Shown one piece after another: positions 2,031 to 56,617 of a stretch of 64,000 nucleotides of DNA (position 1 is its first letter; every line of letters starts with the position of its first letter). The position numbers were made by a program, and so were the translations under genes. The notes beneath the pieces were generated by a model. It was not told where the DNA came from. It searched no databases and was given only the letters and a program-made list of their open reading frames with translations. Source of the stretch: an uncultured Candidatus Saccharibacteria bacterium (GTDB lineage: Bacteria; Patescibacteriota; Minisyncoccia; Phycocordibacterales; UBA12445); NCBI GenBank assembly GCA_964649715.1, contig CAZYTH010000002.1, forward strand, positions 2,248 to 66,247, in the 5' to 3' direction.

Positions 2031-3350
2031 ATGAAAGAGATAGATTTAGAAAAAATAAAAAAAGTTCACTTTATCGGTATTGGCGGCATCGGTGTTTCCG
2101 CAATCGCACGGCTTATGCTCGCTAAAGGCAAAAAAGTTACGGGTTGCGACAAGAGTACCTCTATCATAACAGATAGATTGGCTAGTTTGGGTGCGGAAAT
2201 AACCCTTGGTCACAAAGCGGAGAATCTGAAAGAAGATGTTGACCTTGTTGTTTATACAATTGCCATTGAAGGAAACAACCCTGAATTTTTAAGGGCTAAA
2301 GAACTTGGGATTCTAACAATGTCTTATCCAGAAATTCTTGGATTGCTTTCTCGAGAAAAATACACCATAGCTGTTTCTGGCACACACGGCAAAACGACGA
2401 CTACCGCAATGATAGGAAAGATTCTTATTGATGCGAAAAAAGATCCGACTATAATTGTTGGCAGTCTTATGAATGGGCCAATGAGCAATCTTGTTGTTGG
2501 ACAGAGCGAATATCTTGTGGCTGAGGCATGTGAATACAGAAGGTCGTTTCTCAATTTGACCCCGAGAATTGTTGTCATTACAAATATTGATAACGATCAC
2601 TTAGATTATTACAAAGATATTGATGATATTAAAAGTGCATTCAGAGAATTTGCGAGGAAGCTTGGAAAGAGCGATTATCTTGTTTGCAATTTAAGTGATC
2701 CAACAGTACAGAGTATGGTAGAAAACATAGACTGTAATATTGTTGATTATTCAAAGAACGATATTGTTTCTAAATTAAAACTTAAAGTCGTGGGTGACCA
2801 CAATATAGAAAATGCGAAAGCTTCATTTTCTGTCTCCGAAATATTAAAAATTGACGCAAAAATAGCGAAAAATTCGCTTGAAGAATTCTCTGGAACATGG
2901 AGAAGGTTTGAATTCAAAGGAAGAACTGCAAATGGTGTTATGGTATATGATGACTACGCCCATCATCCGACAGAAATAAGAGCGACACTTTCTGGCGCAA
3001 GGCAGTATTTTAAAGACAAAAAGATAGCTGTCATTTTTCAGCCACATCTTTATAGCAGAACGAAATTACTTTTAAATGATTTTGCAAAAAGCTTTGATAA
3101 TGTTGATGCGGTTTTTCTTACAGATATTTATGCAGCGAGGGAGCCAAAAGATGAAAGTATAAGCTCAAAGATTTTGGCTGAAAAAATAAATGAACAGCAT
3201 GAAACAGGATACCATAAAGCTATTTGTGTCGGTAATATAGAAAACTCGGAAAAATATTTAAAGGAAAAAGAGAAAGATTTTGATGTGATAATTACAATGG
3301 GAGCAGGGGATGTATCAGGATTGTCAGACGTTTTGACAAACAAATTCTAA
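2031..3350 (+). CDS. murC: UDP-N-acetylmuramate--L-alanine ligase (Mur ligase family)
   Basis: N-terminal HFIGIGGIGVSAIA Rossmann motif and GTHGKTTTTAMI P-loop, typical of MurC; Mur ligase middle and C domains. Confidence 0.8.
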   Translation: MKEIDLEKIKKVHFIGIGGIGVSAIARLMLAKGKKVTGCDKSTSIITDRLASLGAEITLGHKAENLKEDVDLVVYTIAIEGNNPEFLRAKELGILTMSYPEILGLLSREKYTIAVSGTHGKTTTTAMIGKILIDAKKDPTIIVGSLMNGPMSNLVVGQSEYLVAEACEYRRSFLNLTPRIVVITNIDNDHLDYYKDIDDIKSAFREFARKLGKSDYLVCNLSDPTVQSMVENIDCNIVDYSKNDIVSKLKLKVVGDHNIENAKASFSVSEILKIDAKIAKNSLEEFSGTWRRFEFKGRTANGVMVYDDYAHHPTEIRATLSGARQYFKDKKIAVIFQPHLYSRTKLLLNDFAKSFDNVDAVFLTDIYAAREPKDESISSKILAEKINEQHETGYHKAICVGNIENSEKYLKEKEKDFDVIITMGAGDVSGLSDVLTNKF

Positions 3351-3364
3351 TTTTCAATTTTCAA

Positions 3365-3420
3365 ATACCCCCTTCACAAACGACAGACGATTGTCCGTTG
3401 TTTGTGAAGGGGGTATTTCA
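3365..3420 (+). terminator. long near-perfect hairpin (about 20-bp stem) downstream of murC
   Basis: Inverted repeat atacccccttcacaaacgacag / ccgttgtttgtgaagggggtat seen directly. Confidence 0.4.
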
Positions 3421-3580
3421 ATAATTATCCTCACGAGCTATGAAAATATATTATTTTTTAAATATTAATTTTATTTACTATGGTAATAGATATTTTTTAA
3501 GATTTTGTTTGGTGGGATGTGGTAGATTTTAATAATTTTTAAATATGCTACTATTAAAAAAAATTAATAAAACCATATAA

Positions 3581-4273
3581 ATGTCAATTTTATACGTAGT
3601 GGCAACGCCGATAGGCAATCTGAAAGATATAACATTTCGCGCGGTAGAAGTTTTGAAGTCCGTGGATTTTATAATTTGCGAAGATACCAGAGTTACAAAA
3701 AAACTTTTAGATGCATATGGGATAAATAAGCCAACCATCTCATATCACAAAGCAAGTAAGCTAGAGAGAATAGATAATATCATTGAAATGTTAAGAGAGG
3801 GTAAGAGTTCTGCTCTTGTTTCTGATGCTGGGACACCCACAATTTCTGATCCTGGAAGCTTCCTTATACAAAAGGCGAGAGAGGCTCTGGGTGATGAATT
3901 GTCCGTTGTGCCAATTCCAGGACCATCGGCCCTAATTACAGCAATTTCAGCAAGTGGATTTGGAGAAACAGCTTTTACCTTTTATGGATTCTTGCCACAC
4001 AAGAAGGGACGAGAAACCATTTTCAAAGAAATTGCCAAAAATGAAATAATCTCTGTTTTCTATGAATCGCCCCATCGCTTCATAAAAGCGATTGAGTCAT
4101 TAAAGAAATTTTTACAAGAAGGAAGGAAGATTTGTATCGCACGAGAGCTCACTAAGATTTTTGAAGAAGTGGTGTCCGGCACACCTGAAGATATTTTGAG
4201 ATATTATGCCGACAACCCTGACAAGATAAAGGGAGAGTTTGTTATTATTGTCAGTAGTGGATATAATGAGTAG
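3581..4273 (+). CDS. rsmI: 16S rRNA (cytidine1402-2'-O)-methyltransferase
   Basis: N-terminus LYVVATPIGNLKDITFRAVEVLKSVDFIICEDTRVTKKLL is the RsmI/tetrapyrrole-methylase signature. Confidence 0.85.
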   Translation: MSILYVVATPIGNLKDITFRAVEVLKSVDFIICEDTRVTKKLLDAYGINKPTISYHKASKLERIDNIIEMLREGKSSALVSDAGTPTISDPGSFLIQKAREALGDELSVVPIPGPSALITAISASGFGETAFTFYGFLPHKKGRETIFKEIAKNEIISVFYESPHRFIKAIESLKKFLQEGRKICIARELTKIFEEVVSGTPEDILRYYADNPDKIKGEFVIIVSSGYNE

Positions 4274-20867: not shown

Positions 20868-20975
20868 CATATCCCTGTGCGATTATTTTAAAATATTTTT
20901 TCATATTTAATTTATTTTCTTTTTTTGCCATATCCCAAAATGTGTCCTATCGTATGTTTTGTTTCTTAATTTTAT

Positions 20976-21004
20976 TTGCATAATATTTTTGTAACTTATA
21001 TAAT
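20976..21004 (+). promoter_or_regulatory. sigma70-like promoter TTGCAT-N17-TATAAT driving ncRNA copy 1
   Basis: -35 at 20976-20981, -10 at 20999-21004. Confidence 0.45.
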
Positions 21005-21010
21005 ATTTGT

Positions 21011-21124
21011 GAGGTTGATGGTTTGACAGGTTAGGTCGTGAGACATAACCACTCGGTTGCAACAGACCGATAGAATCATTCATCTTGTCAAATATCCTGC
21101 GCAAGTAGGATTTTTTGATTTTTG
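21011..21124 (+). ncRNA. candidate small RNA, copy 1 of a two-member family (second at 53178-53296)
   Basis: Own promoter. Conserved 5' ttgatggtttga.agg; hairpin with GTGA tetraloop showing compensatory changes between copies. Conserved cactcggttgcaacagaccgatagaatcatt, then GNRA-capped terminator stem plus T run. Confidence 0.5.
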
Positions 21125-21220
21125 GGCGAAAAAAATTACATCATCCGACGAGGGAGATGTAATTTTTTCAATTCAATATTTATATTATTATTTCGTTGTG
21201 GAGAGGTTGTGGGTTTTTTC

Positions 21221-22003
21221 TTAAATTCTTTTGCTCGTAAAAAATAAGCCAGACAAAAAAACAAAGAGACAGAATATTGTTGCTATGATTATCTCGTTGT
21301 ATTGTACCGCAAATCCTGCTTCAGATAGATGTTTGGCTAGTATTCCTAAGTAAGCCCATATTAAAACGAGGCCATATGCAACGTTTCTATCTTTAAACAT
21401 TCTTAAGCTACCGATAATTGTCCCCGCGAGAAGCGCCACGATGGTCCATGTTTGTTCGGTCAAACCAAAGCGATCCCATCCGATACTGACCAAGAAAACT
21501 GTAACGTTGGCGATGGTCGCCACCGTGATCCACCCGAAATAGATGCTGAATGGGAACAATATGAAAACTTTTTCTTTCAGAGAAAACTTTTCCTTGTTTA
21601 ATATGTTTGCGATTTTTATGAGAAAAAATAAAATCGCCACGATGCACAAGAGCGACAAGCCGATGACGTCGAAGTGCCATGAGAAGATCCACAGAGTGTT
21701 GGCAATTGAACTGAAAATAAAATTAATTCCTATTTTTTTGAAAAGGACTTCTCTGTCTGCGTCTTCTTTGCTTCGAAAAAAGCCAAATTGGTATAAAGAA
21801 TAAAATCCGAGCATCAGATAAATAAGACCCCAAATAGAAAAAGTGAAGGCTGAGGGAGCAAAAAGATTGGGATAATTATTGGAAACTTCTCCTGTCGTTA
21901 CTCCATTTAAGGGGATGATGTTTGCAAGCGAGTTCGTGGTGATCATCGCCAAATATGCAATGACAACTGATATTTTAATAAATAAATTATTTTTTTTAGA
22001 CAT
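21221..22003 (-). CDS. TspO/MBR-like tryptophan-rich polytopic membrane protein (extended)
   Basis: YPNLFAPSAFTFSIWGLIYLMLGFYSLY resembles the TspO N-terminal block; seven or eight TM helices. Confidence 0.35.
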   Translation of the reverse strand: MSKKNNLFIKISVVIAYLAMITTNSLANIIPLNGVTTGEVSNNYPNLFAPSAFTFSIWGLIYLMLGFYSLYQFGFFRSKEDADREVLFKKIGINFIFSSIANTLWIFSWHFDVIGLSLLCIVAILFFLIKIANILNKEKFSLKEKVFILFPFSIYFGWITVATIANVTVFLVSIGWDRFGLTEQTWTIVALLAGTIIGSLRMFKDRNVAYGLVLIWAYLGILAKHLSEAGFAVQYNEIIIATIFCLFVFLSGLFFTSKRI

Positions 22004-36391: not shown

Positions 36392-36577
36392 ATGAAAAAA
36401 ACAAGCAAAGTAAGTCAATACTGGAAAAGTAGAGCAACCTTCATAAACCAACATTTAGGTGCTGAGGTACAACCACTTACTCCCTTAGAACTAAGAGAAA
36501 TGCATAGTCGAAGCATTAAGAGAGGAATTAGCCATAGAAAATTAAATCCAAAGTTATATGAAAACCCAACCAAATAA
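36392..36577 (+). CDS. small basic protein immediately upstream of and overlapping the recombinase start
   Basis: 61 aa, lysine/arginine-rich. Speculative recombination directionality factor or leader peptide. Confidence 0.2.
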   Translation: MKKTSKVSQYWKSRATFINQHLGAEVQPLTPLELREMHSRSIKRGISHRKLNPKLYENPTK

Positions 36578-38192
36578 CCCAATCAAGTACTTTATTTATG
36601 CCCGCAAGTCGAGCGAGGATAAAGAAAAACAAGTCGCATCTATTGAGGACCAGTTAGAAGTTCTTAATAAAATCGCAATACAAAATAACATTAAAATAGT
36701 ACATGTATATGAGGAATCACAATCAGCCAAAAAACCAGGCAGACCACAATTCACCGCCATGCTCGAACGGATTATTAAAGGCGATGCTAGTGGGATACTT
36801 TGTTGGAAACTTGATCGCCTGGCTCGCAATCCTATTGATGGTGGGCAGATAAACTGGCTACTTCAACAAGGAACAATACAAATTATTAAAACAAACGAGC
36901 GAGATTACTACCCAAGCGACAACGTTTTGATGATGCAAGTTGAACTTGGTATGGCTAACCAATACATTCGAGACCTTTCATCAAATGTAAAGCGTGGGCT
37001 CGCTAAGAAATTACGTGATGGCTGGTTACCAGGTCTTGCACCTATCGGATACTTAAACGATCGAACAAACGAAAAAGGAAATCGCACAGTTATGAATGAT
37101 CCTGATAGATTTGTACTGGTTCGTAGAATATGGGACCAAGCACTTACTGGTAATTACACAGTGCCTCAGTTATGGGAGTACTCGAGAAAAGAATTGAATC
37201 TAACAACCGTACTAAGACGAAAGTCTGGAGGTAAGCCATTATCAAAAAGCGCAATGTATTCATTACTCACTAACCCGTTTTATTACGGAATGATTCGGTA
37301 TCCTGAAAAGACTGGTGAACTACATCAAGGTAAACACGAACCAATGATAACGGTCCAAGAATTTGACCGTGTACAAGACATAATTGGCACTCGTAACGCA
37401 ATACGACCTAAGAATGAAGTGTTTGCTTTTACTGGTCTTATGAGGTGCGGTAACTGCGGTTGCTCAGTAACTGCTGAAAGTAAAATAAAGCGATGTAAGA
37501 ATGGAAATTCGCATTACTATACCTACTACCATTGCACTAAAAAGAAAGTCGACATTAAATGCGATCAAAAAAGTGTAGAGGTACGTAAACTAGAGACTAT
37601 GTTCAAAGAGAAATTGATGAACTTGCAAATCTCAGATGCGTTCAAAGCATGGGCAATAAAACATTTGCACGAAATAAGAACCACTGAGGCAGATAGCAAC
37701 AAAATAGCAATGAGTGTGGCATCCAAAGAACTCGCAACCGTGTCAGAGCAACTAAGAGCACTAACTTTGAATTACACATCACCACAGAACATAAACAGAT
37801 CGATAATGACCGAGAGTGAATACTTGGAATTTAAGAATGACCTATTAAAAAAGAAAGAGACCGCAGAGAGTCGAGTTAAAACAACATCAGACGAACTCGA
37901 GTCTTGGGTTGAACTTAGTGAAAAAACTTTTAATCTAGCGTTCTATGCGAGTGTTTGGTTTGAAAAAGGAACGAACGAACAACGTAAAGCAATAATGTCG
38001 TGTTTAGGCTCGAACCTCACACTGAAAGATGGAAAAATCCAACTATACATGCATCCTTTCATTGAAACGCTTATTCAAAACAAAAAATATGTCACTATTG
38101 AGAATCCAAAGGTTAGAACCTCTGAAAACTCAATGTACATAAGACAAAACGCCGCTTTAGGCGACGTTTCATCAAAGTGGCTCCGCGGGTAG
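36558..38192 (+). CDS. large serine recombinase (resolvase-domain integrase)
   Basis: YFIYARKSSEDKE...IEDQ resolvase N-domain with catalytic Ser. Recombinase domain and CGNCGC...YYHC zinc-ribbon. The 3' end overlaps tRNA-Asn. Confidence 0.85.
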   Translation: MKTQPNNPIKYFIYARKSSEDKEKQVASIEDQLEVLNKIAIQNNIKIVHVYEESQSAKKPGRPQFTAMLERIIKGDASGILCWKLDRLARNPIDGGQINWLLQQGTIQIIKTNERDYYPSDNVLMMQVELGMANQYIRDLSSNVKRGLAKKLRDGWLPGLAPIGYLNDRTNEKGNRTVMNDPDRFVLVRRIWDQALTGNYTVPQLWEYSRKELNLTTVLRRKSGGKPLSKSAMYSLLTNPFYYGMIRYPEKTGELHQGKHEPMITVQEFDRVQDIIGTRNAIRPKNEVFAFTGLMRCGNCGCSVTAESKIKRCKNGNSHYYTYYHCTKKKVDIKCDQKSVEVRKLETMFKEKLMNLQISDAFKAWAIKHLHEIRTTEADSNKIAMSVASKELATVSEQLRALTLNYTSPQNINRSIMTESEYLEFKNDLLKKKETAESRVKTTSDELESWVELSEKTFNLAFYASVWFEKGTNEQRKAIMSCLGSNLTLKDGKIQLYMHPFIETLIQNKKYVTIENPKVRTSENSMYIRQNAALGDVSSKWLRG

Positions 38193-38252
38193 GATTCGAA
38201 CCTACGACCAACCGCTTAACAGGCGGTCGCTCTACCACTGAGCTACCGCGGA
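38178..38252 (-). tRNA. tRNA-Asn (anticodon GUU), CCA encoded
   Basis: Reverse complement tccgcggtagctcagtggtagagcgaccgcctGTTaagcggttggtcgtaggttcgaatcctacccgcggagcca folds as a cloverleaf. 7-bp acceptor stem; ctgttaa anticodon loop. Confidence 0.85.
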
Positions 38253-52647: not shown

Positions 52648-53040
52648 CTAACCAGCCATCTTCTTATTGTGAGATGGTTTGTGTGCGCGAATCCCATCTT
52701 CGTCAAAGCCCAGATGGTGTCCGACCTCATGATAAACAACTTCAAAAATAATTTGTTTGATTTTTTCTGGTTTATTTTCAGCAATTAATTCAATTGGTTG
52801 TTGGAAAATTGTTATCTTGTCTGGCAAGACTCCAAAATACCCGGAACCGCGATTAAGCTTCGAGACCCCTTCATATAAACCAAGTAATAATTCACCTTTT
52901 TTAATACCAATTTCGTCTGCTTTTACTTCACGAACCTCTGGCTCAACGAAAAAAGCCACATTCTTCATAGCCGTTTGACCAGCGGGAGGTAGTGCTGAAA
53001 TTGCATTAGAAACTAATTGTTCAAATTCACGCTGTTTCAT
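52648..53040 (-). CDS. zincin-like metallopeptidase family protein (DUF1025-type)
   Basis: C-terminal VVYHEVGHHLGFDEDGI HExxH motif; about 130 aa, as in PF06262-type proteins. Confidence 0.5.
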   Translation of the reverse strand: MKQREFEQLVSNAISALPPAGQTAMKNVAFFVEPEVREVKADEIGIKKGELLLGLYEGVSKLNRGSGYFGVLPDKITIFQQPIELIAENKPEKIKQIIFEVVYHEVGHHLGFDEDGIRAHKPSHNKKMAG

Positions 53041-53142
53041 TTCTTACATTTTACCAACAAAAAGATTTATTGGCTATTTTTTTGCAATATTCTTGAAATC
53101 ATTGTCCAACATCTTTTTAAAAGTTATCCACAGCTAAATTAG

Positions 53143-53171
53143 CTTGATTTTTTTTATCACTACTTTATAAT
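53143..53171 (+). promoter_or_regulatory. sigma70-like promoter TTGATT-N17-TATAAT driving ncRNA copy 2
   Basis: -35 at 53143-53148, -10 at 53166-53171. Confidence 0.45.
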
Positions 53172-53177
53172 TATGAA

Positions 53178-53296
53178 TAGATTGATGGTTTGATAGGTTG
53201 TGTCGTGAGACACAGTCACTCGGTTGCAACAGACCGATAGAATCATTTTATCTCGTCGAGAAGTTCCGGGTCAAACCGGGGCTTTTTGATTTTTGG
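53178..53296 (+). ncRNA. candidate small RNA, copy 2 of the family at 21011-21124
   Basis: Same conserved 5' and central blocks. Hairpin tgtgtc-GTGA-gacaca versus ttaggtc-GTGA-gacataa in copy 1. Own terminator ccgggtcaaaccgggg plus T run. Confidence 0.5.
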
Positions 53297-53448
53297 ATAG
53301 AATCTACGAAATTAACCACATTATAAAAAATAGAAATTGAAATATTAATACATCTTTACTATCTCGATGCTTACATATTTTTTTTGTATTTTTATGATAT
53401 ACATGACAGGATAATTTAAGGGATTATTAAGTAAAGAATTTAAAATTC

Positions 53449-53994
53449 ATGAATAACAAAAAATACGAAGATTTAGGGGTTTTAACTCCGGAGATTTTAT
53501 TACCAAAAAAGGAAATTGATCTTAATACAACAAGGGGCAGGCTTTTTTCTAGTCTCTTTGCGTTTGTTGGAGTAATAATATTTATTTTTGGTGTTTATGA
53601 TTATAAAAACGCTCAAGCCAGTAAAGATTGGCCGTTTGTCGAAGGCAAAATAGTTTCCTCCGCCGTATACAAGTCATATAGTAATAAAAAATACATGTAT
53701 GAAGCAAAGATATCTTTTACGTATTATTTAAATAACACCCCACACACTGGAAACAAGGTATCTTTTAATGATTACAAGGCATCTTATTCATCTCGTGCCG
53801 AAGACGTTGTAAGTAGGTATCCCCAAGGAAGTGTTGTTCGTGTTTATTATAATCCCCAAAATCCAAACGAGTCCGTACTTGAGCCCGGATTAGGTTTTGG
53901 AAGTTTTTTTATAGTTATTGTGGGAGTAATCTTTGCATTTATTGGAACAACCCTGCTGTTTTTTCCTAATATATTTCCAATGTCAAATGCATAA
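53449..53994 (+). CDS. DUF3592 family membrane protein
   Basis: Two TM helices flanking a beta-rich domain (GKIVSS..YKSYS..YYNPQNP). Confidence 0.45.
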   Translation: MNNKKYEDLGVLTPEILLPKKEIDLNTTRGRLFSSLFAFVGVIIFIFGVYDYKNAQASKDWPFVEGKIVSSAVYKSYSNKKYMYEAKISFTYYLNNTPHTGNKVSFNDYKASYSSRAEDVVSRYPQGSVVRVYYNPQNPNESVLEPGLGFGSFFIVIVGVIFAFIGTTLLFFPNIFPMSNA

Positions 53995-56508: not shown

Positions 56509-56617
56509 TTCTTTATTTTTTTAAATGAATATAAAATCGACCAGATTTATTTGTGCTATTCTGATGTGAATTATAACTTTTATTTTATAAAAATTAAAAA
56601 TAGTTATCCACAGATAA

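Follow-up and report, generated by a model that had tools for sequence, protein, structure and literature searches.

A short segment of the window, by which we mean the whole 64,000-nucleotide stretch of DNA analysed here, lies between a Zincin_1 gene, which adjoins it in divergent orientation, and a gene for a DUF3592 protein downstream. Is this segment a gene for an RNA in its own right or the leader of the gene that follows, and what might such an RNA do? A sequence-only reading of the DNA had taken it to be the second of two paralogues (copy 2; copy 1 lies elsewhere in the window) of a stand-alone small RNA gene. As far as we know, non-coding RNA has hardly been described in the Candidate Phyla Radiation (Patescibacteria), episymbiotic bacteria whose genomes measure about 1 Mb and encode few transcription factors. 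The proteins flanking copy 2 have their best homologues in Patescibacteria/Parcubacteria MAGs, and the window also encodes murC, a Na+-pyrophosphatase and similar genes.

Two paralogues, each with a promoter and a terminator

The hexamers of the predicted copy 2 promoter match the sigma-70 consensus at 10 of 12 positions (Table 1). They are the hexamers named by the sequence-only reading, but the spacer between them measures 16 nt rather than the 17 nt given there. At their 3' ends, copy 1 and copy 2 each carry a terminator-like hairpin followed by a T run, and the 15-bp stem of copy 2 does differ from its counterpart in copy 1, as had been described. The distance of about 150 nt to the DUF3592 gene was likewise accurate.

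When aligned with positions 21009-21126, copy 2 showed 83% column identity. The conserved 5' and central blocks noted earlier could both be recovered: the 5' block TTGATGGTTTGAYAGGTT is common to the two copies, while a 30-nt block, CACTCGGTTGCAACAGACCGATAGAATCAT, is identical in both, has no third site in the window and would be expected zero times by chance. Relative to copy 1, the GTGA-capped hairpin of copy 2 (53196-53217) shows a single true compensatory change, from A-U to G-C, together with wobble changes, in keeping with the compensatory changes claimed for it.

On the 3' side of copy 1 there is a second hairpin and then a convergent gene (21221-22003, minus strand). This hairpin (window 21128-21168, AAAAAAATTACATC...GATGTAATTTTTT) lies directly 3' of the copy 1 terminator and is likely to be the terminator of the convergent gene, so that the two would form a back-to-back terminator pair.

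Table 1 Features of copy 2, its paralogue and their surroundings. Positions are those of the window unless a locus (L number) is named.
Feature	Position	Strand	Description
Copy 2 of the small RNA	53178-53296	+	predicted transcript of ~118 nt; ends deduced from promoter and terminator
Copy 2 upstream promoter motif AGTTATCCACAG	53122-53133	+	10 nt upstream of the -35 hexamer; contains a perfect DnaA box, TTATCCACA
Copy 2 promoter	53144-53171	+	sigma-70-type; TTGATT 53144-53149, 16-nt spacer, TATAAT 53166-53171
Copy 2 three-way-junction domain	53179-53253	+	~75 nt; from folding and alignment
Copy 2 P1a	53179-53182 / 53250-53253	+	
Copy 2 P1b	53184-53191 / 53240-53247	+	
Copy 2 J1/2	53192-53195	+	GAUA
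Copy 2 P2	53196-53204 / 53209-53217	+	9 bp; GUGA loop 53205-53208
Copy 2 J2/3	53218-53219	+	AC
Copy 2 P3	53220-53225 / 53232-53237	+	6 bp; loop GCAACA 53226-53231
Copy 2 J3/1	53238-53239	+	UA
Copy 2 intrinsic terminator	53255-53295	+	15-bp stem 53255-53269 / 53276-53290, loop GUCAAA, U tail
Promoter-like site	53370-53398	+	between copy 2 terminator and DUF3592 start codon; CTTACA, 17-nt spacer, TATGAT; consensus match only
DUF3592 gene	ORF 53449-53994		153 nt downstream of copy 2; Pfam E = 1.7e-14
Copy 1	21010-21124	+	paralogue of copy 2; same three-way junction, different terminator top
Copy 1 promoter	20975-21004	+	TTTGCA, 18-nt spacer, TATAAT
Copy 1 P1a	21011-21015 / 21082-21086	+	
Copy 1 P1b	21017-21024 / 21073-21080	+	
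Copy 1 P2	21029-21050	+	
Copy 1 P3	21053-21070	+	
Copy 1 terminator top	21087-21119	+	unlike that of copy 2
(A)GTTATCCACAG sites	window 53122-53133, 56602-56613; L004 3609, L005 5283, L006 2657, L010 8114(-), L023 13608, L021 3130		

A multi-copy family in a narrow group of Patescibacteria

Relatives of the two copies were found by three routes. A 19-mer scan of a genome collection holding one genome per species returned two copies in the Patescibacteria MAG UBA12445, together with one chance match in Pseudomonas (L003). Four more, more divergent copies came from metagenomes with a purine/pyrimidine-degenerate pattern, and a covariance model (R1) revealed a third copy in a UBA12445-type genome, 6 kb from another copy. 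Scored with a covariance model, copy 2 itself reached 135.7-137.2 bits. In a related genome we identified an ortholog of copy 2 (L010/L025) as well as a second copy (L023/L024). The family thus comprises 11 distinct copies in at least seven Patescibacteria genomes or populations, with two to three copies per genome. The earlier proposal of a multi-copy regulatory family is therefore borne out as regards copy number, which extends to other genomes; its regulatory half we infer rather than observe.

Searches further afield brought no additional members. A second-generation model (R2) run over 282 kb recovered no distant members, only terminator-like partial matches, and the RNA was absent beside Zincin_1 homologues of 69-72% identity (~107 kb, L011-L020). 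At gathering thresholds, Rfam 15 found two tRNAs and nothing else in the whole window; at E values up to 10 it gave sub-threshold chance matches only in region 52900-53500 and, at three homologous loci, none on the RNA, so that none of its 4227 models matches the family. Our search of the literature on Patescibacteria sRNAs turned up no relevant description. The family is previously undescribed, and its known members are so far confined to a narrow set of ultra-small Parcubacteria/Patescibacteria.

The 3' strand of P1 reads GAAUCAUU in both window copies, as against GAACCGUU in two UBA12445 copies. Paralogues within a genome share derived states (window copies versus L001/L002), a pattern suggestive of gene conversion or of parallel constraint among them.

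The RNA folds into a covarying three-way junction

In the predicted fold (Table 1), three helices meet at a junction whose joiners read GAYA, AC and UA across the family and are 4, 2 and 2 nt long. P1 is long and split into P1a and P1b, its first pair taking in the predicted 5' end, and in copies 1 and 2 a gap of 2-3 nt separates the junction from the terminator hairpin. The block cactcggttgcaacag, previously read as single-stranded, in fact spans the J2/3 joiner, the 5' strand of hairpin P3 and the greater part of its loop. On the plus strand, the fold energy is -44.2 kcal/mol for copy 2 (z = -4.4) and -38.1 kcal/mol for copy 1 (z = -4.3), whereas the minus-strand folds of both give z values of about -2. 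Since the helices contain many G-U pairs, which on the opposite strand would be C-A mismatches, the plus strand can be assigned as the transcribed one.

Comparison of the 11 copies lends strong support to this fold. Standard pairs fill 97.3% of the 437 cells of the covariation alignment, and 10 pairs (19 cells), distributed over P1, P2, P3 and the terminator, show double changes, that is, changes on both sides. For the terminator helix (helix 5) the paired share of cells is 97.5%, with double changes in three pairs, and the lower stem, UCRARRAG / CUUUUUGA, is kept across the family. No column shuffle out of 500 matched the observed pairing and double changes, and when the 3' partners were slid by 1-3 columns as a control, at most five double-change pairs and at most 57% pairing were obtained. 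Taken together, these data establish that the conserved RNA structure is genuine.

Sequence conservation is concentrated in the loops and the joiners. The P2 loop varies within the GNRA pattern only (GUGA, GCAA or GUAA in the 11 copies), and the apical loop of P3, UUGCAACAGA, is near-invariant, such that the junction and UUGCAACAGA are unchanged in 10 of the 11 copies. The sole variant of the P3 loop, UUGUAACAGA in L023, carries a C-to-U change with which pairing to a partner G would still be possible and with which the UUGCAA palindrome remains self-complementary through G-U pairing. With only 11 sequences from a narrow clade, however, positions that look invariant may merely be young.

These observations bear on the idea that the segment is a repeat element without RNA function (MITE-like, or a promoter/terminator cassette) or else a gene for a tiny protein, as its multiple copies, its inverted repeats and a 42-codon TTG-initiated ORF overlapping copy 2 might suggest. 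Compensatory double changes in all helices, together with the conserved GNRA loop, argue instead for selection at the level of RNA. Moreover, the copies occupy stable orthologous positions across genomes and no repeated flanks were seen between paralogues, which, along with the compensatory substitutions that separate the copies, led us to reject a MITE. Neither exact-pattern scans of viral contigs nor blastn of the RNA against phages and plasmids produced a match. The 42-codon ORF is broken by in-frame stop codons in homologues, no conserved ORF was found in the family, and a mini-ORF at the 5' end (AUG/GUG GUU UGA) was dropped as not conserved. We consider this explanation largely refuted and very improbable.

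Several known classes of RNA were also considered and rejected. A hammerhead or other small self-cleaving ribozyme is contradicted by the absence of the core CUGANGA ... GAAA, by the joiners GAYA, AC and UA, and by the lack of a match to any ribozyme family. For a T-box leader there was no RF00230 match and the genes downstream have nothing to do with amino acids; all that recalls a T-box is the UGGU of P1 and a GCA triplet within the P3 loop. Housekeeping RNAs (SRP RNA, 6S, tmRNA, RNase P RNA, 5S rRNA), the genes for which are normally single-copy, gave no Rfam/ARAGORN match, and this family has two to three copies per genome. SRP helix 8, a tRNA-like structure, group II domain 5 and the 11-nt receptor each fail on their defining sequence features.

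The RNA gene is predicted to be independent of the gene downstream

Could the junction be a riboswitch or attenuator acting in cis on the next gene, whether this encodes DUF3592, a P-type ATPase, VIT1 or another protein, and possibly sensing a cation? Its architecture is of a suitable kind, in that a P1-closed three-way junction of ~75 nt is directly followed by an intrinsic terminator, and in 7 of the 11 copies a co-directional gene lies within 10-200 nt. Cation transporters are encoded directly downstream in L002 and L007, and MgtE and Na/Pi genes are adjacent in L008 and L023.

The genomic contexts, however, speak against a leader. In four of the 11 copies there is no co-directional downstream mRNA: copy 1, L005b and L008 run towards convergent genes and L006 towards a tRNA. 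Where a co-directional gene does follow, it differs from one copy to the next (type IIA P-type ATPase, VIT1, VF530, DUF2238, an unknown membrane protein). Even at orthologous loci the downstream gene changes; in L010/L025, the ortholog of copy 2 keeps Zincin_1 as its divergent neighbour, yet the gene downstream encodes DUF2914, and both the DUF3592 gene and a SurA-like gene are absent. Conversely, orthologues of the L002 P-type ATPase in three other genomes lack the RNA on their upstream side: it is absent in L021, L022 and L026-28, and in L023 the RNA lies ~1 kb downstream of the ATPase orthologue rather than upstream of it. Promoter-like sequences of their own precede the downstream genes of L002, L007, L023 and copy 2, the last of which (53370-53398) could serve as a separate promoter for the DUF3592 gene. 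In the cases of the P-type ATPase (L002 4925-4965) and VIT1 (L007 1020-1046), a -10-like hexamer ends 6 nt before the ATG and there is no Shine-Dalgarno sequence, a spacing that suggests leaderless mRNAs in these Parcubacteria.

Nor did the RNA show the switching elements expected of an attenuator. P1 shares no nucleotides with the terminator, and when transcripts cut before the 3' strand of the terminator were folded, the three-way junction was the lowest-energy fold in 8 of 11, with no antiterminator shared among the truncated folds of the 11 copies. One potential antiterminator or pseudoknot, a 6-bp pairing between J1/2 (UUUGAY) and the 5' strand of the terminator (RUCAAA), was rejected, being mismatched in 3 of 10 sequences and showing no convincing covariation by eye. 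No riboswitch model of Rfam matched even at E values up to 10. We therefore consider a cis-acting riboswitch or attenuator decidedly improbable.

Of the 22 genes immediately next to the 11 copies, 4 are for ion transport (the type IIA P-type ATPase in L002, VIT1 in L007, MgtE in L008 and a Na/Pi cotransporter in L023), and in L005 a TerC gene is found at a distance of two genes. This excess is greater than expected but was noticed post hoc; it could hint at a cis role or an ion-related one.

In contrast to the picture expected for a leader, the RNA has its own promoter, its own Rho-independent terminator and a distribution independent of the flanking genes, and it neither occupies a consistent place in the 5' UTR of related genes nor carries a terminator/antiterminator that overlaps the aptamer-like domain. 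Promoter hexamers (-35 and -10) and terminator keep a fixed register in all 11 copies, and in each of them 6-7 nt separate the -10 hexamer from the base at which P1 pairing starts. With this register, covariation in every helix and independence from DUF3592, the earlier view of two paralogues of a stand-alone small RNA gene is upheld, and the evidence favours a gene predicted to be independent of the DUF3592 gene. Thus, we infer a stable RNA acting in trans, rather than a leader of the downstream gene.

A DnaA-box-like motif upstream of about half of the promoters

Upstream of the -35 hexamer of copy 2 there is a motif that contains a perfect DnaA box (Table 1). Six of the 11 copies, copy 2 among them, have the motif AGTTATCCACAG at a distance of 7-10 nt from the -35 hexamer, on its upstream side. 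Across 332 kb of retrieved DNA, only 10 unique sites of GTTATCCACA occur, six of which precede the -35 hexamer of an RNA copy, and the DnaA-box-like motif GTTATCCACAG also stands before one other promoter, in L021. Proximity to oriC was considered as the source of the DnaA box and rejected, since the window has no GC-skew switch and the motif is thus not part of a replication origin. In all likelihood, (A)GTTATCCACAG serves as an operator for a transcription factor. Three other copies (copy 1, L001 and L007) share a different upstream region of ~95 nt. As these paralogue-specific promoters are conserved across species, the paralogues appear to be old and separately maintained.

The additional site in L021 precedes a region (3130-3745; ENA ERZ27248911 k141_620393) in which the motif is followed by a promoter (TTGACA, 17-nt spacer, TATACT) and then by ~560 nt in which ORFs do not exceed 53 aa and the G+C content is above that of the surroundings. 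This ~560-nt region contains many tetraloop hairpins and a G6/C6 terminator, has a fold z of -9.45 and gave no match to Rfam, tmRNA or R1, which makes L021 3130-3745 a candidate large structured ncRNA. No homology between it and the small RNA was detected, even with filters off.

How the RNA might act

Our leading reading, put forward tentatively, is that 53178-53296 (+) encodes a stand-alone, non-coding structured sRNA that acts in trans, most plausibly through pairing of its P3 loop. Transcription would start from the near-consensus sigma-70 promoter at the first base of helix P1, and the 5' end would as a result be buried in a helix. At the other end, the long terminator hairpin, for which there is no conserved alternative pairing, is read as constitutive. 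The functional surface would be the invariant junction core and the P3 apical loop, which may base-pair in a kissing interaction with an RNA partner, be it an mRNA or another copy of the same RNA; UUGCAA, being self-complementary, would allow self-kissing, and the rest of the fold would act as a protective scaffold. In about half of the copies, expression would probably be controlled via the DnaA-box-like operator just upstream of the -35 hexamer. The slight preference for loop pairing is due mainly to the behaviour of the P3 loop. Small RNAs that work without a chaperone generally use loop seeds, and these bacteria are for the most part not known to have Hfq.

It is nearly as likely that the junction works by binding a protein or a small ligand. 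An invariant-core three-way junction with a GNRA loop is commoner among protein- or ligand-binding RNAs than among base-pairing sRNAs. The RNA might accordingly act in trans as a sponge, scaffold or aptamer-type molecule, with its function residing in the three-dimensional core of the junction rather than in target pairing. The covariation of the whole junction, the invariant joiners and the constancy of the GNRA loop are consistent with this, as are the sequestered 5' end and long terminator hairpin, which are typical of stable RNP-type RNAs, and the fact that complementary targets were not detected. On the other hand, no conserved neighbouring protein gene emerged from the 11 contexts, and the RNA is without repeated protein-binding motifs such as GGA loops. 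Taken as a complete account, an RNA of this type seems to us possible but on balance unlikely.

The proposal that the conserved block is complementary to ribosome-binding regions found no support in the window, where duplex energies between 64 translation-initiation regions and the P3 loop or conserved blocks equalled those of shuffled seeds, a weak test that covers 64 kb of genome. Complementary 10-mer sites occurred at chance density. A 9/10 target site at +57 of the adjacent ATPase gene in L002 was discarded, as it is not conserved in orthologues.

A more specific proposal combines an aptamer- or RNP-type sRNA of ultra-small Parcubacteria, binding a protein, an ion or a metabolite, with a small regulon of structured RNAs under the DnaA-box-like GTTATCCACAG operator. 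We think this improbable. If it were true, the cation-transporter neighbours (noticed post hoc) would hint at a part in ion homeostasis, and the operator would tie RNA-based regulation to the replication initiator, or to some other global factor, in bacteria that have very few classical regulators.

Relation to known RNA families

Among the closest known systems are the multi-copy sibling sRNA families Qrr1-5 (Vibrio), csRNAs (Streptococcus) and LhrC1-5 (Listeria). As in these families, there are several paralogues per genome, each with its own promoter and intrinsic terminator and with a conserved core, and some of the promoters share an upstream operator, here GTTATCCACAG. The RNAs of the sibling families, however, are hairpins of simple form whose seeds are C-rich or anti-Shine-Dalgarno and whose target regulons are known, whereas the present RNA has a covarying three-way junction and a GNRA loop, carries no anti-SD motif, shows no similarity to them and had no detectable targets.

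In overall shape, the RNA is reminiscent of three-way-junction aptamers of the purine riboswitch class, which are likewise P1-closed domains of ~70-75 nt with an invariant core and a terminator directly after. It is unlike them in having no Rfam match, joiners of 4, 2 and 2 nt and no terminator/antiterminator overlap, as well as in not being found consistently in the 5' UTR, the genes downstream being mutually unrelated. The riboswitch-containing or sponge sRNAs EutX/Rli55 and SreA contain known aptamers (AdoCbl, SAM). These resemble the present RNA in placing an aptamer-like domain within a small, independently terminated, trans-acting transcript, but no known aptamer is present here.

Orphan stand-alone structured RNA motifs have been identified by comparative genomics (Weinberg et al. 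2010, PMC2864571). Like these, the present family is short, lineage-restricted and covarying, with its own promoter and terminator; unlike these, it comes from another phylum (Patescibacteria/Parcubacteria), and it differs from them in both fold and sequence. It is thus a new, narrowly distributed and covariation-supported family of Parcubacteria sRNAs, of a general kind, the stand-alone bacterial sRNA, that is already known.

The retention of two to three paralogues in a streamlined genome implies a function important enough to be kept. The RNA is short and easily synthesised, and so offers a concrete molecule for structure probing and for screens of ligands or partners, while the DnaA-box-like element common to some of the promoters opens a testable route into how Parcubacteria regulate RNA genes. 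Should it turn out to be an ordinary base-pairing sRNA, the family would be a useful annotation and unsurprising.

Finally, elsewhere in the window (36558-38252) a gene for a large serine recombinase (544 aa; XisF/CcrB-like) ends at tRNA-Asn (38178-38252, minus strand), and AT skew shifts strongly across 34-40 kb. The recombinase at tRNA-Asn may mark an integrated mobile element.
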